Positions 42,026 to 59,700 of a stretch of 59,700 bases of DNA are shown piece by piece. Source of the DNA: Salinibacter sp. (GTDB lineage: Bacteria; Bacteroidota; Rhodothermia; Rhodothermales; Salinibacteraceae); assembly GCA_042219055.1 (NCBI GenBank), contig JBDGQN010000070.1, forward strand, positions 1 through 59,700, read 5' to 3'. The translations under genes and the position numbers were made by a program. How positions within the stretch are numbered: position 1 is the stretch's first letter; every line of letters begins with the position of its first letter. The notes under the pieces are model-generated. The model ran no database searches, was not told the DNA's origin, and saw nothing but the letters and a program-made list of their open reading frames with translations.

Positions 42026-42328
42026 CGGCCGATTTCGAAAATACGGGAGGATGCAGCGAGCAAAGGAGAGAGGACATCTCCTAGATATTTTCCGCGTCAA
42101 CTCCTGTTCTTCCAACCAGAGGCACGACCAGCGCATCGATTCCCCAACAACTGCCCTCCGAGCAGGCGACGAAGTTGACGACGCAGGCACTCGTACACCT
42201 GCGAATCGAGCACTTCTATCCGCTGTTCTGTTTGTCCGAATCGTCTTCGGGGTCGCGCCTCTCCCGCCATGCAAGTGCCCCGAAGATCTCCACGGTCCCT
42301 TCTCCCACGCACTGCCTGTTAGCCTCCC

Positions 42329-43945
42329 ATGAGCATCGAGCGGTTGACGGATCTCGCTTTCGAGCCCATTGACGACGGGGATCAGTGGACCGAACGGTGT
42401 CTTGCAGCCTTCGAGGGGCTATTCGACGGCCCCGACGACCGATATCACAAGCGCGATTGGGGCACGCGGGTGCAGCCGCGAATCAACGCGGACACCGATA
42501 GTGTGCCGTACGCGGCATTGATTCATCCTGATAATCCCGACTCTGGGCCGTACGGTGGGACGAGCTTCGTCCTGTTTCCGCCGAACGAGACCGAAGAGGA
42601 GGCCGCGGGACCGGGAACGGCACTGTTCGGGCTGGTGGTCGGCACACGTGGGCTGCATCCCGACGAGGAGACGCTCGCTCGGCCGGGGCACGCCCGGAAG
42701 ACCAACGCCATCTGCCAGTGGCTGAACAATGAGTGGGCGGCCGGCGCGCAGGTGGCCTGGGCCAAAGCCGACCCGGTGCGAACGGATCGCAAGATGCCGA
42801 AGCAGGCGCGACGGGTCTTCCAGGGACACGAGGCGACGCTGGAGAAGTACGGAGAGGTCGTCTACGGAGTCGTCCAATCCCCGGACCACTCGGCGCAGGC
42901 CCGGGAGCTCGCCGCAACGGCGCTCACGGCCTTCGTCGATTTGCTGGCCGAAGAGCGCGGGGTCTCGTTTCTAAAAGCGGCCGAGCGTGAGGCGGCGTCC
43001 CTCCGCAACGACTACCTCGCTGAGGTCTTCGAGACACGCGAGCCGGCGGGCGTCTTCGAGCAACTCCAGGATCGGAAGTACGTCATCCTTGAGGGACCGC
43101 CGGGGACGGGCAAGACCCGGCTCGCCGGTCGCCTGCGCGAACGAGAGGAGTGGTACGACGGCCACGGGACGACCATCCAGTTCCATCCGAATACGACCTA
43201 CGAGGATCTCATCGGCGGGCTGGCGCCCGTCTCGGCGCAAGGGCCGGAGGGCCTGCAGTTTGAGCCGACGCCGGGGGCACTGATGCGGGCGGCCGACGAG
43301 GCGGCACGGGTCCATCCCGAGCCGTATCTGCTGCACATCGACGAGATCAACCGCGCCGACCTGGCGACGGTGCTCGGCGAGTCGATATACCTGTTTGAAC
43401 ACCGGCAGTACCGAGCAGGGGAGTCGCAGCGCCGAGTTGCGCTGGCCCACGATTTCACGGAAAAGGTTGCCTCGGGGCTGCTCGACGGGGGGTTCGGGCT
43501 GCCGGAAAACCTCCACGTGCTCGGAACGATGAACACCTCGGACCGGAGCATCGCGCACCTGGACGTTGCCATCCGGCGGCGGTTCGCGTTCCTAAAGATG
43601 TGGCCGCAGCGGGACGCAATCCGGACGTTTCTGGAGGACGTGCCGGAACCGGACCGATCCCGACTCGCGGCCCTGGTGCTCGGCGACGATCACGACGACA
43701 CGCCCCCGGCCAACCTGTACGGGTCGCTGGTTGACCTCTTCGTCGACTACGCCCCCGACGACGCTCTCGACTTGATGCCCGGACACTCGTATTTTCTGGC
43801 CGACTCCCCCGGCGAGCTACACCGGCGGCTGCGCGGAGAATTGCTGCCACTACTCGAGCAGTACATCCGTCAGGGCCACGTGGCAGGGTTCGCAGACGAG
43901 TTGCGGGCGTACATGCAGCGGGTAAACGCGATCGTCAAGGGATAG
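42329..43945 (+). CDS. mcrB: McrB family AAA+ GTPase (type IV restriction) with unrecognised N-terminal domain
   Basis: Walker A GPPGTGKT, QFHPNTTYEDLIGG, Walker B IDEINRA, signature MNTSD, AIRRRF. Confidence 0.92.
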   Translation: MSIERLTDLAFEPIDDGDQWTERCLAAFEGLFDGPDDRYHKRDWGTRVQPRINADTDSVPYAALIHPDNPDSGPYGGTSFVLFPPNETEEEAAGPGTALFGLVVGTRGLHPDEETLARPGHARKTNAICQWLNNEWAAGAQVAWAKADPVRTDRKMPKQARRVFQGHEATLEKYGEVVYGVVQSPDHSAQARELAATALTAFVDLLAEERGVSFLKAAEREAASLRNDYLAEVFETREPAGVFEQLQDRKYVILEGPPGTGKTRLAGRLREREEWYDGHGTTIQFHPNTTYEDLIGGLAPVSAQGPEGLQFEPTPGALMRAADEAARVHPEPYLLHIDEINRADLATVLGESIYLFEHRQYRAGESQRRVALAHDFTEKVASGLLDGGFGLPENLHVLGTMNTSDRSIAHLDVAIRRRFAFLKMWPQRDAIRTFLEDVPEPDRSRLAALVLGDDHDDTPPANLYGSLVDLFVDYAPDDALDLMPGHSYFLADSPGELHRRLRGELLPLLEQYIRQGHVAGFADELRAYMQRVNAIVKG

Positions 43946-44051
43946 ACGCCCGCCACGGTCATCGCTTCAGAGAACACCGTGCCGCCTCCCAGACTCGGTC
44001 CGTGCCGGGGTATCGGCTCGCATCCGCCGTGTCCACCAAACGAATTCCCCC

Positions 44052-45470
44052 ATGCAACGCGTCGATACCCACGACAACCAGAAGGTCTTCCCCCTCCAAG
44101 ACTCGACCACGCACCGGATCGACGCGTCGTTTTTGCTGGGGGCGAATGCAGGGCGGTTTCCCGAAAAGCAGGCCGGGACGTTGGCGGATCAGTTCCTGGA
44201 CACGAATCAGCAGGCGCTCGACGCGTTCGACCTCGACGCGTATCCTCGGTTCGACGGGCGGCGGCTCGACCTGGTCGTCGAGACGAAACGTCGGGTAGGG
44301 GCGATGCCGCTGAAGTCGCCGACGACCGGTGCTCACGACTACGGATTCATCGTGAAGCCGAGGTTCGGGTGGGCGGGCGTCGGGCCGGTGCTGGCCCAGA
44401 CGGGCTGGCGGGTGACGCCGGACATTCTGGAGCTGCCCCAGCTTCCGAAATCGGACCGCGAGATTCCGCCCTGGGTGCTGTCGAGCATCGTATTGCCGAA
44501 GGTCCGGGCGCTGCTACGGAATATGGATCGCGACTTTGAGGTGGTGGACCGGGACCTGCGGGCGCCGCGGGGACGGGTAGACTGGCAGGCTTACGCCACC
44601 CGGAGGATCGGTCGGGGACGGATGCTCGAGGTGCCATGTCGATTCCCCGATTTGCAGGACGATCGCGACCTGTTGTCGGCCATCCACTACACGCTGAAGC
44701 GCCACCGCGGATCTCTGCAGACCCAGCGGCACGCCGGTCCGTTCGTGGAACGGCTCCTGGCGCTGTGTCAGCAGCTGCTCCGCGGCGTGCGTCACGTGGC
44801 GCCGGAGCGTCCGTCGGACCGGCAGATCGACCGGTGGAGGACCCGCGGGTTTGGGGGCGACGCCCACGAGGAGGGCATCCGGGCGATCCGGTGGACGGCC
44901 GACGAGCGCGGGCTGGCAGGGCTCGGCGAGCTACAGGGACTGCCCTGGGCGCTTGCAATGGAGTCGTTTTTCGAGGCCTGGGTCGAGCATCTTGCCGACC
45001 GCATCGCTCGGGTCACCGGCGGCACCGTCCGAACCGGCCGCGAACGCGAGACCGTCGTGCCGCTGCAGTGGGAGCCGAGGCTCGCCGGCTCGCAGCGGTC
45101 GCTCATCCCGGACGTCGTCATCGAGCGGGCGGACGCGACGATGATCCTCGACGCCAAGTACAAGCGTCACTTCGAGGAGCTTGAGCGCCGCTCCTGGCCC
45201 GCCATCGCCGACCACGTCCGCGACACTCACCGCCAGGATCTCCTGCAGGTGCTCGCCTACGCAAGCACCGCCGAGCACCAGCGGGTGACCACCTGCCTCG
45301 TGTATCCGTGCCGCGAGGGGACCTGGGCGTCGCTGAGGGACCGCTCACGCGTTTTCCATCGGGCAGAGCTTGGAGTGGGCGAGCGTCAGATCGAACTGGT
45401 ACTGGCGGCGGCCCCGATCGGGGGAGATTCGGAGGGCGTCGTGGAGGCCCTAGCGGACGCAATGCGGTAG
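44052..45470 (+). CDS. mcrC: McrC family PD-(D/E)xK nuclease subunit
   Basis: RGRVDW, MESFFEAWV, IPDVV, ILDAKYK, DLLQVLAYA; directly follows mcrB. Confidence 0.9.
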   Translation: MQRVDTHDNQKVFPLQDSTTHRIDASFLLGANAGRFPEKQAGTLADQFLDTNQQALDAFDLDAYPRFDGRRLDLVVETKRRVGAMPLKSPTTGAHDYGFIVKPRFGWAGVGPVLAQTGWRVTPDILELPQLPKSDREIPPWVLSSIVLPKVRALLRNMDRDFEVVDRDLRAPRGRVDWQAYATRRIGRGRMLEVPCRFPDLQDDRDLLSAIHYTLKRHRGSLQTQRHAGPFVERLLALCQQLLRGVRHVAPERPSDRQIDRWRTRGFGGDAHEEGIRAIRWTADERGLAGLGELQGLPWALAMESFFEAWVEHLADRIARVTGGTVRTGRERETVVPLQWEPRLAGSQRSLIPDVVIERADATMILDAKYKRHFEELERRSWPAIADHVRDTHRQDLLQVLAYASTAEHQRVTTCLVYPCREGTWASLRDRSRVFHRAELGVGERQIELVLAAAPIGGDSEGVVEALADAMR

Positions 45471-45832: not shown

Positions 45833-45933
45833 AGAGAATGGGTGAACTGAGAGTGCGACTAGCCTGAAAAACGGCCCTCAGCGGCGCTGAGAGGGGATTC
45901 TTCATGGAACTCGCAGGTGCAGTTCAGGGAACA

Positions 45934-45975
45934 ATTGCACCCAATATTGCACCCAAACCTCCATGCTGCACCCAA
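45934..45975 (+). repeat. Integrase arm-type binding repeats (3 x TGCACCCAA)
   Basis: ATTGCACCCAA at 45934 and 45946 and TGCACCCAA at 45967, between the att core and the integrase start. Confidence 0.65.
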
Positions 45976-45988
45976 CCACCGCTCCCCG

Positions 45989-47251
45989 ATGGCAACACTC
46001 TCTTTTCGGTGTCGTGAAGACCGCACCAACGACGACGGACTCGCTCCCGTCGATCTTCGCATCTCTCACAAGAGCGAGCGCCGCTTTCTTTCGACCGAAA
46101 TTCGCGTCGATCCAGACAAGTGGAGAGACGGGAGCGTCACCCGCTCCCACCGCCAAGCGGCCGAGATTAACGCTGGCCTTCGACGCATCGAGTCCACTGC
46201 CCAAGACGCCCTCACGTCGCTTCAAACATCCGGTGCAAGAGTAACGGCGGAGCGGATTAAAGAAGCTGTCCAGGAGGCACTCGATCCGGAATCGGATGAG
46301 CGTGTTGGATTCGCGGATTTTTGCGAGGACCGAATCCAGAAGATGTACGACAACGGATCAACTCGAAAGAACCACATGACGGCCGTCACGAAGTTGAGGG
46401 AATTTCTCCACGACAGGCGCGGTGTCGATGATGTCCCCCTATCTCCCTACTACGTGACTGCGTCGTTGCTTGAAGAGATGCAGACGTGGGAGTCGGAGGT
46501 GCGCGGGAACGCGACGAACACGATTCACAAGACCATGCGTACGCTCCGACGGATGATCAACGTCGCCATTCGGGATGACTTGTTTCCAAGAAGTGAGTAT
46601 CCGTTTGACGACCTCACGCTGAGTAGGGAACGCACGGGCAAAACCCCTCTCACCTCCGACCAGGTCCAATCCCTGGAATCGCTAATGGAAAAAATCGACG
46701 ATGGGGAGGCTCGCTTTTCTCCCGATGGACTGCCTGCTCATGGCCTACGTGCCTTCCTGTTCTCGGTTTACATGTTGGGAATGCGTTGGTCGGACGTGTC
46801 GAGCCTGGAGTGGTCTCAGATCCGCGATGGGCGCGTCCAGTACCAGATGCGGAAAACCGGCGCGCAGAAAGACCTAAAGCTTGTTCCCCCAGCCAAGGAG
46901 ATCTTAAACTGGTACGATGATCGGCGCGGCGAGCGATTCGTTTTTCCCCTGCTGGAGCGATACGCCCACAAACATGACCTTTCGGAGGACGAGGGGCTTC
47001 GTGGTGCGATCGAGGACATGAACCGCCGCATAAACCAGGAACTGAAGAAGATCGATAAGGCGGCCGGGCTTGGGCTCGGGCTGACGACGCACATGGCCCG
47101 GCATACCTCTGCTCAACGCATGATGGAGCAGGGTTGGAGCCTGCAGGAGATTCAATCGGCGCTCGCTCACAAGTCAATCTCCACGACCGAGCACTACCTT
47201 CGGACCGTACGCGACGAGGAACTGGACGAGAAACACGAAGACCTATGGTGA
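45989..47251 (+). CDS. Site-specific tyrosine integrase with arm-binding and SAM-like domains (Bacteroidota/Rhodothermota type)
   Basis: N-terminal GLAPVDLRISHK arm domain; FLFSVYMLGMRWSDV, MRKTG, HMARHT, LAH, TEHY. Confidence 0.94.
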   Translation: MATLSFRCREDRTNDDGLAPVDLRISHKSERRFLSTEIRVDPDKWRDGSVTRSHRQAAEINAGLRRIESTAQDALTSLQTSGARVTAERIKEAVQEALDPESDERVGFADFCEDRIQKMYDNGSTRKNHMTAVTKLREFLHDRRGVDDVPLSPYYVTASLLEEMQTWESEVRGNATNTIHKTMRTLRRMINVAIRDDLFPRSEYPFDDLTLSRERTGKTPLTSDQVQSLESLMEKIDDGEARFSPDGLPAHGLRAFLFSVYMLGMRWSDVSSLEWSQIRDGRVQYQMRKTGAQKDLKLVPPAKEILNWYDDRRGERFVFPLLERYAHKHDLSEDEGLRGAIEDMNRRINQELKKIDKAAGLGLGLTTHMARHTSAQRMMEQGWSLQEIQSALAHKSISTTEHYLRTVRDEELDEKHEDLW

Positions 47252-47521
47252 CTCCTTCGTAAGCTGCTCTCCCACCTCCTCGACCCGGTAAAGATTCTTC
47301 TGTGTCGGCGTATCTGCGGGCTCAAGCGGCCAGTCGTAGACGGTGCGCTTCTCAACACCGTACAGCCGGCAGATATCGTCCAAGGTAATTAGTCCGGCCT
47401 TCAGGCGTCCGAGCATGCGAATGTCGCCGATCTGATCGGTGAGGTTTCGGGCGATCGCTTTAGCGCCCGCAGCGCCCGCCTGTTCCAGTTCCTGCTCGTC
47501 GACTTGGTAGATGCGCTTCAT
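47243..47521 (-). CDS. Excisionase-like winged-HTH protein
   Basis: LITLDDICRLYGVEKRTVYDW...LYRVEEV (MerR/HTH_17-like); convergent with the integrase. Confidence 0.7.
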   Translation of the reverse strand: MKRIYQVDEQELEQAGAAGAKAIARNLTDQIGDIRMLGRLKAGLITLDDICRLYGVEKRTVYDWPLEPADTPTQKNLYRVEEVGEQLTKESP

Positions 47522-47587
47522 TCTGGTAGATCCATCTTTTTCGGGCTCTTGTGCCCTTTCGTGATGGTCAGGATTGTGCGCGGCGGA

Positions 47588-50077
47588 TCACTCAGGCCAA
47601 TCCACCTCCAGTTCTGTGGGCACGCCCAGTTCATCGGCCTTGTGGGCGACCGCTCGTTGCAGGCTGTTGATCTGCTTCTTCGGCGAGGCTTTGGAGCTCA
47701 CCCGGATGGTGAAACCATCTCCTTGATAGAGCCAGATCTTGAAGCGCGTGGAGGCTTCCCTCGCCTTCTCCTTCCTAGCTTCGTCAAAGGCCGCCCCGAC
47801 GATCTCCGTCTCATAAGAGGCGTTGATGTAGCTCATAAGTCCTCTCCACCGGTTCTCTTTGTGCTTGGTCTCATCCCACTTTCCGAGCGGGATGAAACGG
47901 CCAGTGGCATCCTCAAGGCCCCCGCGATCATTGATGATGTCGCGCAGTGTCTCTCGGGTCTCCAAGAGCTCCGAAACGAGAGGATGCGAGCCAAGCGGCC
48001 GAAGCGGCTCGTGCGAATCGGGGTACGATCCGCCATTGGCTTCATAATCGACCGCAATGTTGTGAAGCACCCGTGCCCACTCCATGCCGTACGGGACGCT
48101 ATAGAGGCGCTTGACGGCATTCCTCAGCGCTTCAATGTTGCTGAGCACCTCGGTGTCGCAGGCACGGGCGAGCTCCATCCAGAGGTCTCCTTCGGCAAGA
48201 AGATCGGTGTCATTTTCGAGGTTTGCCTGGAGATACCGGTCCAGCTGAGGCGTCTCAATGCCGTGGTCTCGCACCGTCGGCACGTAGGAGGTGAGGTGAG
48301 CTTTCGTGAGGTCCAGTTCCCAATCCTTCCCCTCGACATAGAGACTTTTCCGGACCTCCGTTTTGACATTCATAAGCTGATTCCAACGGTCCGCCCGGAG
48401 CCGCGGGGATCGGTCGCATGCGGCGTACAGCGGCTTCGGAAATTCGCGGAGACCGAAAAGCTTCCGGAGTTCCTGAATGCGGCGTTGCTCGTCGGGGATC
48501 TGCTCCACAACCTCGGCCATCCCGTCCAACTTGCCGTCTGCGAAGACTCCGTGCTGGCCGTGGCTGAAGACGTTGACGGGGTCGAGTTCGTTGAGGTAGT
48601 TCTTCATCATCAAGGCCGTCTCCGGCGCATCGACAACCGGCTCATTGTTATCGACAAGTCGTCTCCGTTTCTTGCGCTCCGGCCCCAGGGCACGACGGCT
48701 ATTGGCCTTGTTGCCACTCAGCATGAACTTCCGATCCGGCTGTTCCTCTGGGCTGAGCATAAACTCGTGGGCGGCCTCGGTGATCGACTTCGGGATTGAG
48801 TGGGATAAAACAACACGGCCTCGGTTGACTCGATGGTCCCAGCCGCTGACCATGAAATCACTGTCAACGTACTTCTGGTAGAGTTCCAACAGCATGCCGG
48901 AGTTAAGCCCCCGGTTGTAGCCCGACTGCGGGCGGTAGCCGAAGGCCGGGAAGACGATTTCGCTTGTGATTGGCATTCCGGTACAGTCCTGTTCCGGGCT
49001 TGCATTATCGTCTCGCTTGCTCGTGGTGAGGATCAGCTGCAGAATTGCCATGAGTGGAGTGGCCTCTGTCAGGACCGGGCGCCATTGCACGATTCGATGA
49101 TAGAGGTCCGTCGGAATCGGCTTATCGGGCACACAATCAAGTGGAGACCGACCCAACAATTCGTACTCCACGGACAAGTCAAGGTGCTCCAACTGCCGTC
49201 GATCCCTCGACTCGGCCCCGGAAATTCCACGCCGCGTACACGAGATTCCACCCCGCGTACATCCGGTGACCTCGACGATATTCGGGCCAAAACTGCCTCT
49301 ATAGCTGTTGAAGCGGGATCGAGGCGGGGAGGCGAAGAGGTAGCCGGAACCTAAAATGTTAGGCTCATTGCGGGGCTGCCGCGTCGCGGTCGGCGCGGTT
49401 GGCGTCGTCGCGGGGACGGCTGGGCGGGGTTCGGTGGCTGCCGCGGGGCTGCTTTGCTCGGTTCCGGCGTCAAAAAAAAGAGCTTCCAGTTTCTCGACAC
49501 TTCCGGTTTCAATCAGCCACTCCGTAGCATCAGCGACTTCTTGAGCATCGAGCTCTCTGATTCCCAGGTTGATTAGCCTCTCGATTACGACATCAAGGAT
49601 GACTTCGGTGCCACTAGACTTCCAACCTTCAAAAGTCCGCCTACTACGCTGCTCTATGACGAGGAGCCCTCCAACTGACGGTACGTTTGTTAGTGGTGGT
49701 AACTCGTCAAGGACCTCATCAGGAACGTACTGCTTGATGGTGTCGACATAAGAGACCACAGAAGTGCTGACCTCACATTCATCGTCCTCCCCAAGATAGT
49801 TGGATCCCTCCTCGTTCGGATCAGTCAGCAGATCAGGGTCAACCTTCTCGACTACCGCCTCCTCGGCATTGTGCTCGATGCAACTACAGACGAGTTGCAC
49901 GTAGGCATGAGAGTCGACAGGTGCCTCCTCCCAGATGAGGCTCAGCAGATTGACTGGCCCCATCCCTTCGATGCGCTGCTGAAACTCCCGGCGCTCGGAA
50001 ACGGAAAGTTCAGATGAAGAGGTGCCTGTAGCGACTGGATCTTCTCCAGCCGCATTCGTAAAATACGATGCGGGCAA
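47588..50077 (-). CDS. Divergent family A DNA polymerase-like protein (putative replicase of the element)
   Basis: Ordered PolA motifs SPRL...NQLMNV...VRKSL, ELDLTKAHL (A), RNAVKRLYSVPYG (B), DATGR, SYINASYETEIV, LYQGDGF (C). Start codon uncertain. Confidence 0.7.
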   Translation of the reverse strand: MPASYFTNAAGEDPVATGTSSSELSVSERREFQQRIEGMGPVNLLSLIWEEAPVDSHAYVQLVCSCIEHNAEEAVVEKVDPDLLTDPNEEGSNYLGEDDECEVSTSVVSYVDTIKQYVPDEVLDELPPLTNVPSVGGLLVIEQRSRRTFEGWKSSGTEVILDVVIERLINLGIRELDAQEVADATEWLIETGSVEKLEALFFDAGTEQSSPAAATEPRPAVPATTPTAPTATRQPRNEPNILGSGYLFASPPRSRFNSYRGSFGPNIVEVTGCTRGGISCTRRGISGAESRDRRQLEHLDLSVEYELLGRSPLDCVPDKPIPTDLYHRIVQWRPVLTEATPLMAILQLILTTSKRDDNASPEQDCTGMPITSEIVFPAFGYRPQSGYNRGLNSGMLLELYQKYVDSDFMVSGWDHRVNRGRVVLSHSIPKSITEAAHEFMLSPEEQPDRKFMLSGNKANSRRALGPERKKRRRLVDNNEPVVDAPETALMMKNYLNELDPVNVFSHGQHGVFADGKLDGMAEVVEQIPDEQRRIQELRKLFGLREFPKPLYAACDRSPRLRADRWNQLMNVKTEVRKSLYVEGKDWELDLTKAHLTSYVPTVRDHGIETPQLDRYLQANLENDTDLLAEGDLWMELARACDTEVLSNIEALRNAVKRLYSVPYGMEWARVLHNIAVDYEANGGSYPDSHEPLRPLGSHPLVSELLETRETLRDIINDRGGLEDATGRFIPLGKWDETKHKENRWRGLMSYINASYETEIVGAAFDEARKEKAREASTRFKIWLYQGDGFTIRVSSKASPKKQINSLQRAVAHKADELGVPTELEVDWPE

Positions 50078-50107
50078 AGCTTAAGTCCTAAGGCTTGTGG
50101 ATCCCGC

Positions 50108-50200
50108 CGGCAGTGGCAGCTGCCGACAGATAGGGTTCTAGCGAACTCTTCTAGATTCTTCTAAGGCCCTGATCGGTGGCAGCCGGTCAGGGCCTTTTTT
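50108..50200 (+). promoter_or_regulatory. Twin hairpins with identical TGGCAG loops; the second is a + strand intrinsic terminator
   Basis: CGGCAG-TGGCAG-CTGCCG and AAGGCCCTGATCGG-TGGCAG-CCGGTCAGGGCCTT followed by TTTT. Confidence 0.6.
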
Positions 50201-50227
50201 CTTAATGGTTGGGTTAGGACGACAGCA

Positions 50228-50899
50228 TTAGTTGCAGATCCACCTCTCAAAGTACTCGGCTTTTTCCAATCCCCACTCGGTCCCCCTGGCAATACCAGGT
50301 GCGTGGAAATCTCGGGCGTGTGGACACACTGCCATCAATAAAACCTCAGAGAGGGCGCCCAAATCTGAATACGTGTCGGCGACCTTCTTGGCATACTCGA
50401 CCGCTTTTTCTGTCTCTTTGCGATTGTCGAAGAAGATCGTGGTAATGTCGTCTGTCGTAGTCTCCTTTCCGGTCTTTCGCTTGAGGTGAAAGTGCCAGCT
50501 ACTGCCTTTTTTCCAGCACGATATCTCCCACTTCGCTGTGCTTGTTTCGAACGGTTCCTCATTCTCGACCCGCGACTTTGAAAACATCCGCGGCATCGAT
50601 CCGCTCACGTTCCGATCCACTTCCCTCTGCCACTCCTGAAGCCGATCCCGGAAACCGCGACGCTTCTCTTGAATCTTCGCCTCTTCGGCTGCACGGGAAG
50701 CTTCTTTCGCTTCCTGCCAGGCCCGCCTCATTCCGATTGATAGCCGATCGTTGTAGGACCGGTCGCCGTTCATCATGGACGCAATCTCGTGACCGCGACT
50801 CATTATTGCCGCTCGATTCCATGAACCATCCTCGTTTTTCCAGCGACTCGTCCTCGGCTGCAGGCGGAAGACTTCGATTTCGTTGTTATCTGTGCTCAT
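50228..50899 (-). CDS. Hypothetical phage/MGE-type protein
   Basis: 223 aa ORF; NRAAIMSRGHEIA...LSIGMRRAWQEAK resembles a short helical motif seen in phage proteins (recalled, not searched). Confidence 0.7.
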   Translation of the reverse strand: MSTDNNEIEVFRLQPRTSRWKNEDGSWNRAAIMSRGHEIASMMNGDRSYNDRLSIGMRRAWQEAKEASRAAEEAKIQEKRRGFRDRLQEWQREVDRNVSGSMPRMFSKSRVENEEPFETSTAKWEISCWKKGSSWHFHLKRKTGKETTTDDITTIFFDNRKETEKAVEYAKKVADTYSDLGALSEVLLMAVCPHARDFHAPGIARGTEWGLEKAEYFERWICN

Positions 50900-50944: not shown

Positions 50945-51208
50945 TTACTCGTCATCCAGAATATCGTAACCGAGCAGCGTCGTCCACTCCGTATCCGGCC
51001 GATCCGACTCGGCCAGCCGTTCCAGGCGCTGAAGCGTTCGCCTCACGGCCGCACTGGGCTCGACGTGACCGTTCTCAAGCCGCGACACATTCTTCTGCGC
51101 GGTCGCGGGCGAGGCATCCCAGATCTCCTGCCCAAAGGCCGCTTGACTCATCTTGAGTTTCTTTCGGAGATTTCGAATCCGGTCGGGGGTCCAGGGGTCG
51201 TGAGCCAT
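50945..51208 (-). CDS. XRE-family HTH transcriptional regulator
   Basis: WTPDRIRNLRKKLKMSQAAFG...VSRLENGHVEPS. Confidence 0.88.
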   Translation of the reverse strand: MAHDPWTPDRIRNLRKKLKMSQAAFGQEIWDASPATAQKNVSRLENGHVEPSAAVRRTLQRLERLAESDRPDTEWTTLLGYDILDDE

Positions 51209-51563
51209 GTCGTCGGTTTCCAGTTTGGGTTGATTGTATCGGCACATACCACTATGGTATGCATGTGTTCCGCTCCCGAACCTGGGTTCGCCTCCCCTTT
51301 GATATCACCTCCAGTCCAGAAACGAATGGATGTTGATTGCCACTCCATAGGTCTTAGGTTCAAACGGCCAGTGATTGCGTTCGAAGAGATTCCGGAATTA
51401 TGCAACGGTGGAACCGCTCGGACCGTGGACCCCAGAACAATCATCTGAAAAACGATCCGGGCCGGGGTCCGCTCGAAATTTTCGCCCTGCCTGTAGCCGC
51501 CCATTCCTTCGCCTCGGACAAGACGCATCCACCAGTAAAACGGTAGCAATCGGACCTGTAAAG

Positions 51564-52653: not shown

Positions 52654-54609
52654 TCACGAGAAGTTAATCCAACCTGCCTCGTCAAGAATCGTCCCAAGAG
52701 TTTCCGGAAACGCCTCCAGACTGTTCTCTCTGGGCCGCAGGAGAACAAACCCAACCGCATAGCCGGACGAAGGACGGTGGACATGCGTCCGAGGGCCTGC
52801 ATGTAAGTCCGGCGACATTCCCCACGCCGCGTCGACAATCTCCTTCGACTTGCCATCCGCTCCCTCCTCGACGAAGCTCCGTAGTGCTCGCTTGTAGTCG
52901 TACTTGTCTTCCACCGGCCGGTCCCCATCCGTCATCGCGGGGCGCGGCGAACGAAGAGTTGGATCGAGTGTGATGATACGAGGGGTCGTTCCCGATGCCA
53001 CCTTCCCCTCCGAAGAGACCTTGTGCCATTCGAGGGCAATGTCCGGACACCGTTTGTTTCCCGTATAGTCGGTGTAATCGAGTCCCCGGCGTTCCAGCCC
53101 GTACGGGCGGTCTGTATCAAAATACCCGTTTTCGCTCCGCAAGGGCTGGTACTGTCTTTCGTACCAGACTTCCAGTAGTCGACCGGGACGAGAGGGATGT
53201 GTCATGCGGGCGTTCACCTTGTCCGGAACTGGATTTTGGTAGAACGGGGTCACGTGCCGCCCTTTCTCGTCGACGAACTCGAAGCCCACCTCTCGCAGAG
53301 CCCGAATCGTGTGTATAAAGCACCAATGCTCATACGCCTTATTGAACGCTTGCACCTCGAACGGGATGGAATCTTCCGACGCATCCACAAAGTCCATGAG
53401 CGCATCGAGAAGGTCCGTCAGGCGTCGGAGGCGGCTGTACCGCCCGTCGTAGTACGTGACTGCCGACCGGTCCTCAAATCGATGTGTGGCTTCTTCTGGC
53501 GAGTACGGGAGCGCGCCTGCATAGCGCCTCAATGCCTCTTCGTACTCGTTCAATTTGCCCAAAGCCGCCTCATGTTTGTCCAAGCGGAGCTGCTTCTTCT
53601 CTTTTACCAGATGGTCCCGGACCCGCTCTACGCAGTTTCGCACTCGACGCACAGACTCGGCCACGAACCGATTCGCGCTCGTCTCTACCGTGGAGGTGGC
53701 CTTGGAGGTGGTAAACTCCGTGGGGACCCGGCCGGCAGCAGTATCGACAACCTCATGCACCTGCTGCAATGGAGGATGAGGACTGTGGTGCTGGAAGTAC
53801 TCTTCGGCCTGCCGCAGATTCAACGCCACGTGCTCGGTGTCAATGGACAGGGCCGTGTCCGGATCGCGAATAATCTGGCATAGCGTATCCCGGTACCGGG
53901 GAAGGATGCCCTCCAGACGCTTAAACAGCTCCAGTCCTGGCGTTTCTTCCTGTCGCTGCTTCATTTCCTGATAGTCCACGAATCGCTCCATCGGCGACGC
54001 CAAGTTTCCACGCACGGTTCGCCGGGATAGGTCTGAGAGAACGCCCTCATAAAGCTCCCGATAATCCTCGTCGCCGTACCCGAGCGCGATCCGCGTGGAG
54101 AGGATGCTCCCGTCCGGTCGTCGCACTGGCGTCGGAATCCACTCCTCCGTGTCCTCGTCAAATTGGCGCTGGTAGAGCGTGATCTGTGCCTGAGCAGCAC
54201 ACCAGTAGTTCGTTCGAATTCGCTTTACGTCTTCATTGGTCTCCTCAGAACCGGTAGCCCATCGTACCCACTCGCCCTGCAGCGCCCGATTTTGAAGCTC
54301 AATGCTGAGCTCTTCGTCCCACGGATCTGACGGAGTTCCAAGGTAGACTAGCAGAGGATCTCGTGAGGCTTCTTGTGTCCATGCCTCGAATGCGAGCTGG
54401 CGAGTATCTTCGAGGATGGGCCGTGTGCGCTCCGGATCCTTGTCGTCAAAGGCAAACCATTCTCGCTCTCCCGTATCGAAGTACTGTCCGCGCCGAGTGT
54501 CGTATACGTACCGACGAAGGCCAAGTGCAATCGGGCCAATCTCGGTCTCGACGACGGCCTCCTTCCGGGAGACTGAAGAAACAGAATCTTCGTCCATCTT
54601 CTCGACCAC
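52654..54609 (-). CDS. DUF2357 / PD-(D/E)xK McrC-like nuclease partner
   Basis: T.ETSANRFV, YEHWCFI, CPDIALE, IITLDPTLR at the LDAKYR position; directly downstream of a McrB-like GTPase. Confidence 0.78.
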   Translation of the reverse strand: MVEKMDEDSVSSVSRKEAVVETEIGPIALGLRRYVYDTRRGQYFDTGEREWFAFDDKDPERTRPILEDTRQLAFEAWTQEASRDPLLVYLGTPSDPWDEELSIELQNRALQGEWVRWATGSEETNEDVKRIRTNYWCAAQAQITLYQRQFDEDTEEWIPTPVRRPDGSILSTRIALGYGDEDYRELYEGVLSDLSRRTVRGNLASPMERFVDYQEMKQRQEETPGLELFKRLEGILPRYRDTLCQIIRDPDTALSIDTEHVALNLRQAEEYFQHHSPHPPLQQVHEVVDTAAGRVPTEFTTSKATSTVETSANRFVAESVRRVRNCVERVRDHLVKEKKQLRLDKHEAALGKLNEYEEALRRYAGALPYSPEEATHRFEDRSAVTYYDGRYSRLRRLTDLLDALMDFVDASEDSIPFEVQAFNKAYEHWCFIHTIRALREVGFEFVDEKGRHVTPFYQNPVPDKVNARMTHPSRPGRLLEVWYERQYQPLRSENGYFDTDRPYGLERRGLDYTDYTGNKRCPDIALEWHKVSSEGKVASGTTPRIITLDPTLRSPRPAMTDGDRPVEDKYDYKRALRSFVEEGADGKSKEIVDAAWGMSPDLHAGPRTHVHRPSSGYAVGFVLLRPRENSLEAFPETLGTILDEAGWINFS

Positions 54610-54676: not shown

Positions 54677-57600
54677 TCAGAGCGCCGCCTGTCCCGGCAG
54701 TCCCTGCTGCACCCGGCGGAGCAGGCGGTCGACCTCGTCGTACTCCCGAAGCTTGTCGCTCTTCTGGAGCCGCTTTCGATATCGCCCCTCAGGGTCGTTG
54801 ATTGCGTATGCGCCCGGTAGCTTCGAAAGGAAAAAGCTAACGAGCACGTCTCCCATGACAGTGCTCGTCTCCTTACTGACATCTGGATGCTGAGAGGCAT
54901 ACTGATACGCTTGCTCAATCGACCGATAGGCAAGCGGGGCTTGGCCCGCCCGAGCGAGCTGGCTCAACTCGTCCAAAATGTCCAGAAAGGCGTCGTGGAA
55001 CGCTGCTGGAACGCCGAATTCATCCTTGAACTGCTTGGCTGCTCGTCGCAGCGAGTCGTTTTCGGGACTCACGGGAATGTACGTAGCCCGATCCAGCACC
55101 TTCGGACTGAGCGTCTTCGTCGTGGCATCGGTGTTGATCGTCGCAAACAGCTTCAGATTGGCCGTGAGGTCGACTTCAAATGCACTTTCCCCCGACGTAT
55201 CCTGCCCGAGATGAAGACGCCGATTTGGCGATCCCTCGGGAGCTTCCATTTTCGACAGAATGTTGGCGAGGTACTGTTCCGGCTGGGCAATGTTGAATTC
55301 GTCGAGACACGCCAAAAAGAGGCGGGCGTGCTCTGTCCCGGGGCCTGCAAGGGCCTTGAAGTATTGCGACTCTGCCTTGATCAAAAACTTCAGAAAGGAG
55401 GTGTACTTGTACTCTCCCGTAATCGCACTTTCGCTTCCGAGGAGGCTGTCGGGTGAGAACCAGGACGGGGAAACCGGCTCCAGAAGATGGAAGTGCTCCC
55501 ATCCATCTTCACCGAGATCCCGGTTAAAGAATTCTGCCAGAAGGCGTACGAGCGAGGTTTTCCCGCATCCTGGGGGGCCGGCTAAAACCACCAGTCCACT
55601 TGCCTTACCCGCGCAGTGCATCCAGGCTCGGCGCAGCACTTTTTCTGGATAGATGAATCCTCGCTCCTCAACAAAATTACGGAAGGCCGACAGACTGGTG
55701 TCGAGCTCGCCTGTTGCCAGGTGTGAGAGTGGATGTTCGGTGCGCTCCTCCACCTTCTGCTCAATCTGCTTCTTGAGCTCATCATCCGAGAATGCCCCAT
55801 CTTCTTTTGATTGTAGGCTCGCAACGAGGGGATTGAGCGTTTCTCTGATCTCTCGAACAGCGTCTGCGAGATCACCACCGTTCTCACTCCCGTCCTCCTC
55901 GATACGCTCAATCCGCTCACTCATCTGCTCGACGGCCTTTCGCATCGCGTCATTCGATTTCCGAATAGGGGCCACAGTGTCCTGCACCATTTGCTGCATC
56001 CACTGGGTCATTCCGACGGCCCAGTGTCCGTCTTCGTGTGCCTCAGTAGGGAGACCAGAGGATTCTCCAGTTCCGCTTCTGTCATCTGAGGAAGTGGTCG
56101 ATGTTTCGTCCACGGCTTGATCGTGATCTTCAGTAGAGAATGTCGTGTCGTCGTCTGCGGCTTCGTCCGCCGATGCACTTTCTCCTTCGTCTGCGTGAGT
56201 CCGGGCTTCGATCTCTTCGAAGGAGGCATTTCCCTCTTCCTCCAGTGCGGCATGAAGCTCCTGCTGGAATTCTGCGATGCCGTCTTCCGAGCGCTCGATC
56301 CTGTCCCGGACTACGTCGAGTTCCCGCCGCAGCGTGGCAGAGGCGGGCACTGGTTCTCCCGCATGCGCACGGAGCGCCTCGGCGAAGGCACCCACCACGT
56401 CATCTTTTCCCTCTTCTTGTTGAAACGCATACATGTGCGCCCCACGGAGTATTCGGAAAAGTCCGCTCATAGCGGGACGGTACCCAATGTCCCTGTGGGC
56501 CCGAAGGACTCCTTCGACCGCCTCCTCACAATTCATGGGGGCATCCGGAAGATGCTTTTGGAGCGCCTCCGATGGCGCTACGCGACGAGAGTGCAGGCTA
56601 AACACTTCCAGATCGGGCCGACACGGAAGATCGTGACCGGGCGCGTAGAGGGCGACAGCCGTGTTGTTCATGCCGAGGTCAATACAAATGTGTGCCGCCT
56701 CCTCATCTTGCAAATCCGGACGGAGGGACACTGACACGTACCCGTCCTCCTCGGCATCCAGCGTTCGACGATAGTCACGATGGGGTTGCACATTCCAGAG
56801 AAAGGGCTTCACTCGGAGCCGATCCGGGCGCAGTTCGGCGTGGGCGGTAAATCGAATCAGCTTTTTCCGCTCATCATCTGGCGGGGCCTCGTCTTCATTT
56901 CGCTGCTGAAACCGACGGTCCGGCTCGTCGCCGTAGTCATTGACATCTGCCCGCAGGTACACCTCCGCCTCCTGCAGTGATGGCTGCCCCGGCGTCAGCG
57001 TCAAGTCCTCAAATCGGTCGTACCCGCCGGGCTCAAGTCGAACCGTATCCCGTTCCTCCAACTCATCGACGGCACAGAGCAGAAATTCCTCCTCACGCTG
57101 AGGCTCTCCGCGCTCACTTTCGGTTCGTTCAAACGAGTACGGCGTCCCGTCGGGAGTGCGAACGAGGGCGTAAATTTCCTCCCCCTCTTCGAGAATGCGT
57201 TCGCGCTCTTCTTCGGCGATCGAGGAGACCTGTCCGAGGACAGCAAGACTGCTATTCGGCACTCCTTTCTCCGCCGCCAAACGCCGGCGGGGACGGACAC
57301 AGGCATTCGCCTCCCCGTCGTTCCCGAGTAGGTCCAGCCGATCCAAGTCCATGCGAATGAGGTCCTCCAATCCAGGAAGCCCGGTCGAGCCGCCAGCCAG
57401 GAAGATGTTCTCGATCTTCTCAAACTCTAGCAGTTGTCCGTGCTCTCGGGCAAGCCGCTGTACTCGGCCAAGGAATCCTCGGAATCCCGGACCCAGCGGC
57501 TGATTTTCGTCTTGCCATATTTCACGAAGGACCCGTCCGAGCAGGGCTTCATCGATTTGAAACGTGCCTTCCTCCTCCTCATCGATCTCAATCTGGACGG

Positions 57601-58507
57601 CCTCCCGCCGCCCGGTACAGATTGCGATTTTCGCCTCCTCAATGCGTTCCAGATAGGGCATCCATTTCTTACTCCGTCGAGGAACTCGATCACGTCCTAG
57701 AAGCTTCTTCAAGACGTACTGGTCGAAATACGCCCCGGCACAGCCAATGCTCGTACAGATCGGATAAAGGCGAAAATCACTCTCCTGCCGATTCACCTGA
57801 ACGACCGCGACGTCGGTCGTGCTTCCCCCCATGTCGAAGACGAGAAAGGTCTCGCCCGCCTGCGTTTCTCCCGGTTCTACGCCGTGCTCCAGCAGCGAAT
57901 AGTAGTAGTACACGCCGTACGGCTCATAGAGAAAGTCCGTCCCGCCGACCTGGAAAGAGACGTTCTCGTACTCATTCTCCTGTATTACCGAGTCGACGAT
58001 TCGCCGGATGTTTTCGCGGTATCGGCGCGACTTTTTCTTTCCCCTCGTCCCATCTCCCTCGTATTCGTAGTTGGGCGCCGTGAAGTGGATCTGAAGGGAT
58101 TTCTCGTTCCCAAACAGGTCTCGGGCTCGCTCAACCGCCCGCTTGCAGACCTTCGACAGGAAAATCGCTGCGGCCTGATGGGGATTGAAGTATTCTTTCT
58201 TCCCACTACTGCTTTGCCCTACGATTTCATTGAGCCGGGTATAGTCCCCCGTCTTTGTCCGCATGGACCAGACTTCCTCATCCGGCGTTTCTGCCTGGGC
58301 TTTGGTGAGGCTCAGGTCGGCCTTGAAGTGCCGGTAATAGTTGGAGGCGGTCTCTGCCTTCTCAGAGGAGGCGAGCACAAAGTCGCTCGGGTCGGGCGAC
58401 TGGGAATTGAACGACTCCGTCGTCCGGTAAATCGCCGTCGGCAACAGCAGGTCGCCGCCGAATCGCAAAAGCGCGAGTTTTTGCGTGGGACCGTTGGTCC
58501 GACTCAT
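54677..58507 (-). CDS. Hsp70-like ATPase - acidic/coiled-coil linker - McrB-like (NxD) AAA+ GTPase fusion
   Basis: Hsp70 motifs FDMGGSTTDV, GAYFD, LAGGSTGLPGL and IDLGMNNTAVA; AAA+ motifs GPPGCGKT, VSPSW...LLG, LDEFNIA, INTDATT, SPKVLDRA. Confidence 0.85.
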   Translation of the reverse strand: MSRTNGPTQKLALLRFGGDLLLPTAIYRTTESFNSQSPDPSDFVLASSEKAETASNYYRHFKADLSLTKAQAETPDEEVWSMRTKTGDYTRLNEIVGQSSSGKKEYFNPHQAAAIFLSKVCKRAVERARDLFGNEKSLQIHFTAPNYEYEGDGTRGKKKSRRYRENIRRIVDSVIQENEYENVSFQVGGTDFLYEPYGVYYYYSLLEHGVEPGETQAGETFLVFDMGGSTTDVAVVQVNRQESDFRLYPICTSIGCAGAYFDQYVLKKLLGRDRVPRRSKKWMPYLERIEEAKIAICTGRREAVQIEIDEEEEGTFQIDEALLGRVLREIWQDENQPLGPGFRGFLGRVQRLAREHGQLLEFEKIENIFLAGGSTGLPGLEDLIRMDLDRLDLLGNDGEANACVRPRRRLAAEKGVPNSSLAVLGQVSSIAEEERERILEEGEEIYALVRTPDGTPYSFERTESERGEPQREEEFLLCAVDELEERDTVRLEPGGYDRFEDLTLTPGQPSLQEAEVYLRADVNDYGDEPDRRFQQRNEDEAPPDDERKKLIRFTAHAELRPDRLRVKPFLWNVQPHRDYRRTLDAEEDGYVSVSLRPDLQDEEAAHICIDLGMNNTAVALYAPGHDLPCRPDLEVFSLHSRRVAPSEALQKHLPDAPMNCEEAVEGVLRAHRDIGYRPAMSGLFRILRGAHMYAFQQEEGKDDVVGAFAEALRAHAGEPVPASATLRRELDVVRDRIERSEDGIAEFQQELHAALEEEGNASFEEIEARTHADEGESASADEAADDDTTFSTEDHDQAVDETSTTSSDDRSGTGESSGLPTEAHEDGHWAVGMTQWMQQMVQDTVAPIRKSNDAMRKAVEQMSERIERIEEDGSENGGDLADAVREIRETLNPLVASLQSKEDGAFSDDELKKQIEQKVEERTEHPLSHLATGELDTSLSAFRNFVEERGFIYPEKVLRRAWMHCAGKASGLVVLAGPPGCGKTSLVRLLAEFFNRDLGEDGWEHFHLLEPVSPSWFSPDSLLGSESAITGEYKYTSFLKFLIKAESQYFKALAGPGTEHARLFLACLDEFNIAQPEQYLANILSKMEAPEGSPNRRLHLGQDTSGESAFEVDLTANLKLFATINTDATTKTLSPKVLDRATYIPVSPENDSLRRAAKQFKDEFGVPAAFHDAFLDILDELSQLARAGQAPLAYRSIEQAYQYASQHPDVSKETSTVMGDVLVSFFLSKLPGAYAINDPEGRYRKRLQKSDKLREYDEVDRLLRRVQQGLPGQAAL

Positions 58508-58579: not shown

Positions 58580-59700
58580 CTATTGGAGATGTCCGGTCTC
58601 GTGGAGCGAGAGGTCGTTCTCCTCTACGGTAACGAGAGCGGGGACCACATCAGTCACCTGATCGGGGGGCTCTGTGTTGTTGTACCCGCTCGTCGACGCA
58701 AATCCCTCCGTGCGGGGCCGAGGAAGAAGAACGGTCACCTTCTCGACTTCCACGACCCAGTGCGTCGCGTCGGACGGCGCGGCCCGAGCGTATTTGTCCT
58801 CATTATGAGTTGCCCAGTGGCTCACGGACACCGACGAGGAGAGCCGGTTTTCCAAAAACCACTCGAACCGGCCGCCCACCGGGCGCAGATCATCTTCTTC
58901 CCGGCACCAGTCTGTAAATGCCGTTCCACAGCGGTCGAGAATTCGACGGTCCCGTTCAGAGATGGACGGCTCGGAATCGCCCTGATGATCGTCCTGCGTC
59001 TCCGAACTCGTTGCAGAGGATTCCTCCAATGTGTCTTCTTCGGTATCAGATGTTCCTTTGCTCTCCGTAGGTTCATCCTCCACCGACGAGCGAACGTCCC
59101 CCGACTCTTCGCCCTGCTGTTCCTCGCCCTGCTCTTCCGACATCGAAGTCGCGGTTCGGAGCCCCTCGGCCGCGATTGGGGTCTGAATCTCAGGGTCTCC
59201 CTCATCGCGATTCGTCTGTTCCGCCTGGTCGGCTGTCGTCGATTCGGTCGTGCTCGTCTCACTCTCCTCAGAGGCTTCACCGCTCTCCTCTTCCTTTCCG
59301 TCCATGTGAGGCGGCGTCCCGGCCTCCTCGCGTCGGGCATCCAGGTACCACCCGAGTCCCCGAACGAGCACATAACCGGCCCCAAATGTAAACAAGATAA
59401 ACAACAGAACATCCCAAAAAATGCCGAGTCGATCGGCCCAGGACAGGCCAACGCCGGGGCCGCCTGCCGATGACGTTTCCGACGACACTTTCGACGACGT
59501 GGACGGCGCTGATGTCTCCTTCTTTTTCGGGGTCGACGCTGTAGCGTCATCTTCCGACCACTTCTTCGCCCGGGCAATCAACTGTTTGGCCTGGTTTTTC
59601 CAAGCGGGGTGACTCTCCACCACACGCACAGCAGTTCTATCTTCAAGCGTGTAGTATCTCGGATAGTCAGTATCACCGTCCAAGGCTCGACTGCAGTACA
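58580..59700 (-). CDS. Single-pass membrane protein with acidic linker and small C-terminal domain (5' end beyond window)
   Basis: Frame open to the right edge; TM IFWDVLLFILFTFGAGYVLV; E/S/T-rich linker; C-terminal WVVEV...LLPRP...VPALVTV; ends 72 bp upstream of the Hsp70-McrB gene. Confidence 0.75.
   Translation of the reverse strand, partial: YCSRALDGDTDYPRYYTLEDRTAVRVVESHPAWKNQAKQLIARAKKWSEDDATASTPKKKETSAPSTSSKVSSETSSAGGPGVGLSWADRLGIFWDVLLFILFTFGAGYVLVRGLGWYLDARREEAGTPPHMDGKEEESGEASEESETSTTESTTADQAEQTNRDEGDPEIQTPIAAEGLRTATSMSEEQGEEQQGEESGDVRSSVEDEPTESKGTSDTEEDTLEESSATSSETQDDHQGDSEPSISERDRRILDRCGTAFTDWCREEDDLRPVGGRFEWFLENRLSSSVSVSHWATHNEDKYARAAPSDATHWVVEVEKVTVLLPRPRTEGFASTSGYNNTEPPDQVTDVVPALVTVEENDLSLHETGHLQ

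Follow-up and report, generated by a model that had tools for sequence, protein, structure and literature searches.

The order of the motifs in the Hsp70/actin fold has been treated as fixed. Fusions of Hsp70 to McrB have been published as the Hsp70-NxD McrB group (Bell 2024; representative QOZ24013.1), and in the same work the Walker A-like motifs of Hsp70-like domains were called degenerate, little hydrolysis was predicted and RNA binding was proposed (PMC11090510). Here we analyzed a 59,700-nucleotide stretch of Salinibacter sp. DNA (assembly GCA_042219055.1, contig JBDGQN010000070.1, positions 1 to 59,700; hereafter the window) that encodes a protein of this kind, P0001 (1,276 aa; 54677..58507, minus strand, to which all of its features below belong). 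P0001 reads, in order, as a permuted Hsp70 nucleotide-binding domain (NBD), a domain resembling the beta subdomain of the Hsp70 substrate-binding domain (SBD-beta), a phosphate-1 hairpin, a linker and a McrB-like NxD GTPase. The structural permutation is very probably real: as the original prediction, made from the letters of the window, had proposed, the first hairpin of the NBD appears to be supplied from downstream, on the evidence of a profile match, family-wide conservation and AlphaFold2 (AF2) models.

All three motifs of the Hsp70/actin (ASKHA) NBD fold, phosphate-1, phosphate-2 and adenosine, are present in P0001, and the four segments on which the original prediction relied were located in the translation where it had placed them. 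The NBD lacks beta1-beta2 and runs from beta3 (residues 8-434, 57206..58486; delimited by hhalign, VIA-align comparison of the model, and conservation). It holds K62, P145, E195, D225, T230 and G372-G373 and includes LLRFGGDLLLPTAIY (residues 13-27, nt 58471-58427), the phosphate-2 motif DMGGSTTD (residues 225-232, 57812..57835) and the adenosine motif LAGGSTGLP (residues 370-378, 57374..57400), the latter two recognized by sequence and profile match. The relocated phosphate-1 beta-hairpin (56645..56695) comprises beta1 (605-611) and beta2 (615-621), carries D610 and G612, and contains HICIDLGMNNTAVALY (residues 606-621, nt 56692-56645; the D610 codon begins at nt 56680). Pfam placed HSP70 at residues 217-385 and AAA_5 near residue 973. 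The chain had been predicted to start at the segment that follows phosphate-1; that order was borne out, while the real start lies slightly earlier, at beta3 (residues 9-14). The ATG is preceded by an in-frame TAG 24 codons upstream, too close for a phosphate-1 to fit at the N terminus, and translation of the region upstream of the ATG in all three minus-strand frames showed no phosphate-1-like motif. A mis-start or frameshift of P0001 was rejected on these grounds, and three metagenome loci have the same start point.

The identity of the hairpin was assessed by comparison with a profile of 63 ordinary Hsp70s from fetched loci. Results from hhalign showed that residues 40-434 of the module correspond to DnaK 44-375 (probability 99.2), and that residues 606-626 correspond to DnaK 3-23 (probability 95.2, E 2.5e-8, with a family profile of residues 600-640); the hairpin was also the second match of the whole-module profile (probability 81.3). 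The hairpin match is above chance: against phosphate-2 the same segment reached a probability of only 0.3, and of three control segments taken from the middle domain none scored more than 1.1 against the Hsp70 profile. The N-terminal segment (residues 6-70) gave a weak profile match by itself (3.3), and its assignment therefore rests on structure comparison. A short canonical phosphate-1 hidden Markov model, too narrow to score well, had the downstream hairpin as its best match in 30 of 36 eligible proteins and no upstream match above 5 bits in any of them, which points weakly in the same direction. Thus phosphate-1 is found near residue 610, where the match to DnaK 3-23 lies, and not at the N terminus.

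Homologues were collected by a word-indexed search, which returned 34 proteins (the query among them), and by a full profile scan, which contributed remoter ones, for a total of 77 candidates; 57 passed a filter that required a phosphate-2-like motif at 100-300 and a length of at least 620 aa. The 20 that were dropped consisted of 17 partial or module-less proteins and three full-length proteins that the pattern failed to catch (P0009, P0035 and P0048), which display the same downstream hairpin. Across the 57 homologues that span the module (15-83% identity to P0001), ten columns are invariant, namely D610 and G612 of the hairpin together with P145, E195, L222, D225, G227, G372, G373 and G425, and K62 and T230 are each retained in 56. 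By alignment, and in E. coli DnaK numbering, we take D610, G612, K62, P145, E195, D225 and T230 to be the counterparts of D8, G10, K70, P143, E171, D194 and T199, respectively. A study of Hsp70 describes D8, E171 and D194 as Mg-water ligands and K70 and T11 as gamma-phosphate sensors, with K70 contacting the gamma-phosphate (PMC12406271). The mean fraction of the most common residue was 0.69 in the hairpin, 0.70 in phosphate-2 and 0.28 in the middle domain.

None of the 57 homologues has a beta1-beta2 hairpin at its N terminus. The N terminus is cut short in five; at most 17 residues stand ahead of beta3 in 51 of the 52 in which it is intact, and P0058 has 31, with no Asp-x-Gly. Two matters raised with the original prediction are settled by this comparison: the permutation is conserved, the order being kept down to 15% identity, and homologues with an N-terminal phosphate-1, which would have marked P0001 as a truncated copy, were not seen. 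The lack of an N-terminal hairpin in the homologues, together with the invariance of D610 and G612, argues that P0001 is neither mis-started nor a decaying remnant.

Residues 1-676 were modelled with AF2 from 33 sequences (predicted template-modelling score 0.88, mean pLDDT 84.9), and the model has strands at 9-14, 605-611, 615-621 and 633-638. Its best VIA-align matches were the NBDs of Hsp70 and Hsp110 (Z 19-22); it superposes, for example, on the Hsp110 NBD 6gfa with Z 20.1 and a root-mean-square deviation (rmsd) of 4.4 over 329 residues. The matches begin at model residues 7-8, equivalent to DnaK 20-21 or Hsc70 23, and beta1-beta2 of the target is left unmatched in all of the top 50 alignment rows. 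Many rows finish with model residues 602/603 paired to Hsc70 383/384, which we take to be the NBD end adjoining the start of beta1. The hairpin had a pLDDT of ~90-93 in the full model and of 71-72 when residues 433-648 were folded without the NBD; the extra strand at residues 633-638 (56594..56611) was present in the full model and lost in this fragment model. Thus, the hairpin is predicted to fill the beta1-beta2 slot of subdomain IA (lobe I), and folding outside the NBD was not seen, inasmuch as the hairpin was modelled confidently only with the ATPase lobes present. No solved permuted actin-fold chain was evident in the top 50 rows, although sequential aligners would not reveal one as such. 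A BFVD search returned mainly viral Hsp70s and actin-like proteins, and an Atlas search gave only leads below 0.9.

The intervening region that had been predicted between the NBD and the hairpin is present and is now likely assigned. It is a beta-sandwich (residues ~440-594, 56726..57190) with no helical lid after it, and the top three of 48,161 chains compared with a fragment model were the SBD-beta of Sse1, DnaK and BiP, a weak structural match (Z 4.5-4.8, rmsd 3.4-4.2, 97-100 residues) in which DnaK 397-507 pairs with residues 440-594. By position and rank, with Z below 5, the model suggests that the domain is likely an SBD-beta homologue. The hairpin strands come ~10 residues after the sandwich, where the alpha-helical lid would begin. 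The permuted unit is therefore predicted to comprise the NBD and SBD-beta: with the hairpin in the beta1-beta2 slot, the sandwich would bridge the old termini and be tied to the ATPase at both ends, with no lid.

C-terminal to the module lies a variable helical and low-complexity acidic linker (residues ~645-930, 55718..56575), which is poorly conserved and differs in length between homologues (alignments A1 and A4). It is followed by the McrB-like AAA+ GTPase (54680..55705), with Walker A GPPGCGKT (977), Walker B DEFN (1069) and the NxD motif TINTD (1123); the NxD pattern is common to the McrB domains of the homologues. A topoisomerase C-terminal repeat (PF13368) is inserted between hairpin and McrB in L069:4385-8218 and P0044, and P0060 and P0072 are close relatives of the McrB domain with other N-terminal regions and no Hsp70 motifs. 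The next gene encodes a McrC-like partner of 651 aa (52654..54609, minus strand) with DUF2357 (Pfam E 7e-7) and a PD-(D/E)xK-like region (weak PDDEXK_7 match, E 0.029). A McrC-like gene lies directly downstream in all six loci aligned (the window, L028, L029, L030, L069 and L070), and the six partners share invariant PDIxLE and T(L/F)DPT motifs, including both Asp residues, and an invariant Lys and Tyr in the helix after T(L/F)DPT. Because the gene upstream of the permuted hsp70-mcrB differs among loci and the McrC-like gene is constant, the two genes were considered a unit.

McrB is not the only C-terminal partner. P0183 (964 aa) has the same permuted order followed by a Fic domain, and WP_166354164.1, from a Bradyrhizobium barranii plasmid, has it followed by a tail without a Pfam match; the hairpin of the latter is nearly canonical and matches DnaK 3-28 (probability 92.7). 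As the same order occurs with McrB, Fic or an uncharacterised tail, the module, judged from these sequences, is portable between effectors. The plasmid copy (L097:6941-15188) adjoins an integrase-like gene and a type IV secretion system and lies upstream of genes for a helicase, a PLD-like protein and DUF6361. According to PDB titles, Hsp70s such as BiP are AMPylated by Fic enzymes, and by analogy self-modification of P0183 by its Fic domain is conceivable. A quick tree of the NBD placed 27 permuted sequences on one side and 10 ordinary Hsp70s on the other (Shimodaira-Hasegawa-like approximate likelihood ratio test, 100), and three McrB fusions clustered with the Fic fusion (85). The tree is unrooted, gave long-branch warnings and has a narrow outgroup; the permuted modules may have a single origin, with which it is compatible without establishing it. 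In P0184 the downstream segment matches DnaK 3-28, and strand 633-638 is possibly a duplicate beta3 left by the permutation. A beta3-like strand at both ends suggests that the permutation arose by duplication and trimming.

Taken as a whole, these results make it likely, at a probability that we put at roughly 55%, that the permuted module serves a two-gene defence system of the McrBC-like (Type IV restriction-like) kind as its sensor or switch. In such a system, the relocated hairpin would fold back so as to complete the ATP site, and Mg-ATP would be bound by the module. A ligand derived from the invader, most likely a phage protein, would bind the lidless sandwich and alter lobe I in its nucleotide state or its stability, which would in turn license assembly of McrB and the McrC-like nuclease, as the specificity domains of ordinary McrB proteins do. 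The module occurs in a defence context: besides the McrC-like gene at six of six loci, the Nodosilinea copy comes after PglZ and BrxL, and the Phormidium copy sits between a methyltransferase and a DEAD helicase. We also entertain, more tentatively, the broader idea of a natural permuted Hsp70 without a lid that works as a portable immune sensor, the Hsp70-based equivalent of receptors of the STAND type (signal transduction ATPases with numerous domains); a hairpin threaded from behind the substrate domain would render the ATP site dependent on that domain's state, and the attached effector, be it McrB-McrC, Fic or another, would be switched on when a phage protein is recognized.

Several observations weigh against the sensor or switch. 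The residue at the T11 position in the 57 homologues is Met in 50, Asn in five, Ala in one and Thr in one, and Hsp70 allostery is described as disabled when the polar group at T11 is lost (PMC12406271); the DnaK-type allosteric cycle is thus likely altered in the permuted family, as judged from the alignment. The hairpin was placed in the NBD by an indirect route, from sequential alignments and changes in model confidence rather than coordinates. For the middle domain, unrelated sandwiches score Z 4.3, near the SBD-beta matches, and the best Foldseek E was 0.22, a weak value. The PD-(D/E)xK Lys of the McrC-like partner is replaced by Thr in six of six, which makes nuclease activity uncertain; the invariant Lys of the next helix possibly substitutes as a migrated catalytic Lys. 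In P0001, the Hsp70 module is not covered by any of the PADLOC models. Finally, the original prediction held that the permutation would couple ATP binding both to the intervening domain and to the McrB motor. The first part is retained in the model, where the sandwich lies between NBD and hairpin; the link to McrB is weaker, as ~290 variable residues separate it from the hairpin and relatives carry Fic or an uncharacterised tail in its place, and direct mechanical coupling is doubtful.

The main rival accepts the permutation, but in it the module, slow or dead as an ATPase and with ATP bound, would serve as a scaffold, attaching to RNA or ribosomes and targeting the McrBC unit; Bell et al. put this forward for the Hsp70-like domains of NxD systems. 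The prevalence of Met at T11, the missing lid, the replaced McrC Lys and the published view of degenerate Walker A-like motifs and RNA binding (PMC11090510) all favour such a scaffold. However, phosphate-1 is not degenerate in the permuted family once the relocated hairpin is counted, the equivalents of K70, E171, D194, T199 and D8 are all kept, which is beyond the needs of a dead scaffold, and neither a HEPN or UPF1-like gene nor an OB-fold partner was identified beside the pair in six loci by Pfam or inspection, a search that was not exhaustive and that in the window ends one gene upstream. We regard the scaffold as possible, although appreciably less probable than a sensor or switch.

It is unlikely that the module is instead a dedicated chaperone acting in cis, which would fold, hold or release its own fused effector and sense nothing foreign. 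The effector does sit right after the hairpin and differs among members, and an SBD-like domain is retained, yet there is no lid, inspection of the loci brought neither a J-domain nor a GrpE neighbour to notice (no profile search was aimed at them), and ordinary McrB proteins fold unaided and bear sensor domains at the same position (PMC11090510). Most improbable of all is an NBD that is a truncated pseudo-domain with no functional permutation, in which case the motif at 610 would be what is left of another Hsp70 copy and would fold outside the NBD. The beta3-like strand after the hairpin and the P0184 segment fit an origin by duplication, and the placement of the hairpin is predicted rather than read from coordinates; but such an origin is compatible with a role in the ATP site today, conservation of the hairpin equals that of phosphate-2 and far exceeds that of the sandwich, the hairpin is modelled confidently only with the NBD, and the order is kept across three C-terminal partners as well as at 15% identity.

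The pair in the window lies less than 9 kb from an integrase and a second McrBC. This second pair (42323-45470, plus strand) lies beside the integrase, at a distance of 7 kb from the permuted system, and encodes an AAA_5 protein of ~537 aa and a 472-aa protein that matches Pfam McrBC. The interval 45917-50899 contains the tyrosine integrase (45917-47251, plus), a small open reading frame (47243-47521, minus) and an 829-aa protein without a Pfam match (47588-50077, minus), with an HTH_3 protein at 50945-51247 (minus); GC content falls from ~0.65 to 0.55-0.59. The interval is likely an integrated mobile element, which may carry the gene pair. Upstream of P0001, an open reading frame that runs off the end of the window (58580-59698, minus) encodes a protein that likely spans the membrane once and includes a long low-complexity stretch of acidic character; it has no Pfam or NCBIfam match and was not seen upstream in the other loci. 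Elsewhere, the source genome also has dnaK (C121), a likely mreB (C237) and a second, non-DnaK gene of the Hsp70 family (C283:3790-5346).

The permuted family is rare and patchy in bacteria, with named members in Rhodothermaceae, Melioribacteraceae and cyanobacteria. The module was not found in 100 relatives, a first scan of genome contigs gave 61 pattern matches and no confirmed relative, and 401 genomes of the phylum of the window had only partial Hsp70-like matches outside the source genome. Among the matches listed for 401 and 301 genomes of two other phyla there was no new full-length member, and nothing was found in phage by tblastn. Three viral-contig matches were rejected as ordinary-order Hsp70s; L105:5911-7383 and L106:5530-6990 encode ordinary-order Hsp70s of ~490 aa, too short for a lid, next to genes resembling phage tail or lysis genes. 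The plasmid McrB matches L032 and L034 have no Hsp70 module on inspection of their translations, and L033 and L035 (548 and 484 aa) are too short for one.

A natural permutant with the whole catalytic set would show that the fold can be cut between beta2 and beta3 and can hold a substrate domain by both of its ends, and the family offers a natural experiment on the way in which Hsp70 allostery is driven by NBD-SBD docking and T11. It further suggests that the description of Hsp70-like domains in McrBC-type systems as degenerate may stem from looking for phosphate-1 at the wrong position, and it defines a rare module with swappable effectors as a candidate anti-phage sensor. The fusion itself is already published; what appears new from these sequences, and was not found described, is the permutation and the exchange of effectors. 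The string "permut" has no occurrence in the main text of the eLife paper of Bell 2024 or its preprint, whose figures, including the motif alignments of Figure 6-figure supplement 6, may bear on novelty, and no report of a naturally permuted Hsp70 was found in the literature searched, a coverage outside which most subscription papers fall; a kinase-classification paper that came up is generic in the passages concerned.

Compared with known systems, P0001 is closest to the Hsp70-NxD McrB group, with which it shares the McrB-like GTPase with NxD, the Hsp70 NBD and an adjacent DUF2357 McrC homologue; it differs from the published account of that group in having a complete active-site set once the relocated hairpin is counted. 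It resembles canonical Hsp70/DnaK (PF00012) in the NBD fold (by the Z scores above), the K70, P143, E171, D194 and T199 equivalents, the linker position and the likely SBD-beta. Unlike canonical Hsp70, it has beta1-beta2 behind SBD-beta, no alpha-helical lid and an effector fusion, and its family mostly has Met or Asn at T11 and is rare and patchy. The CnuD/CnuCD proteins of Type III CoCoNuT systems likewise place an Hsp70-like NBD/SBD within McrBC-type systems, but there the Hsp70-like domains either form part of a McrC fusion or come from a separate gene, and they are accompanied by HEAT repeats, a helicase and HEPN (PMC11090510). A CoCoNuT-type example, P0040, has by eye a degenerate phosphate-1-like segment at the start of its Hsp70 part, which is the normal order. 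Finally, E. coli McrBC has the same plan of an AAA+ GTPase McrB with an N-terminal accessory domain followed by a McrC-like gene, whereas P0001 has NxD rather than NxxD, a partner with Thr in place of the McrC catalytic Lys, and a 640-aa Hsp70 module in place of the small DNA-binding domain.

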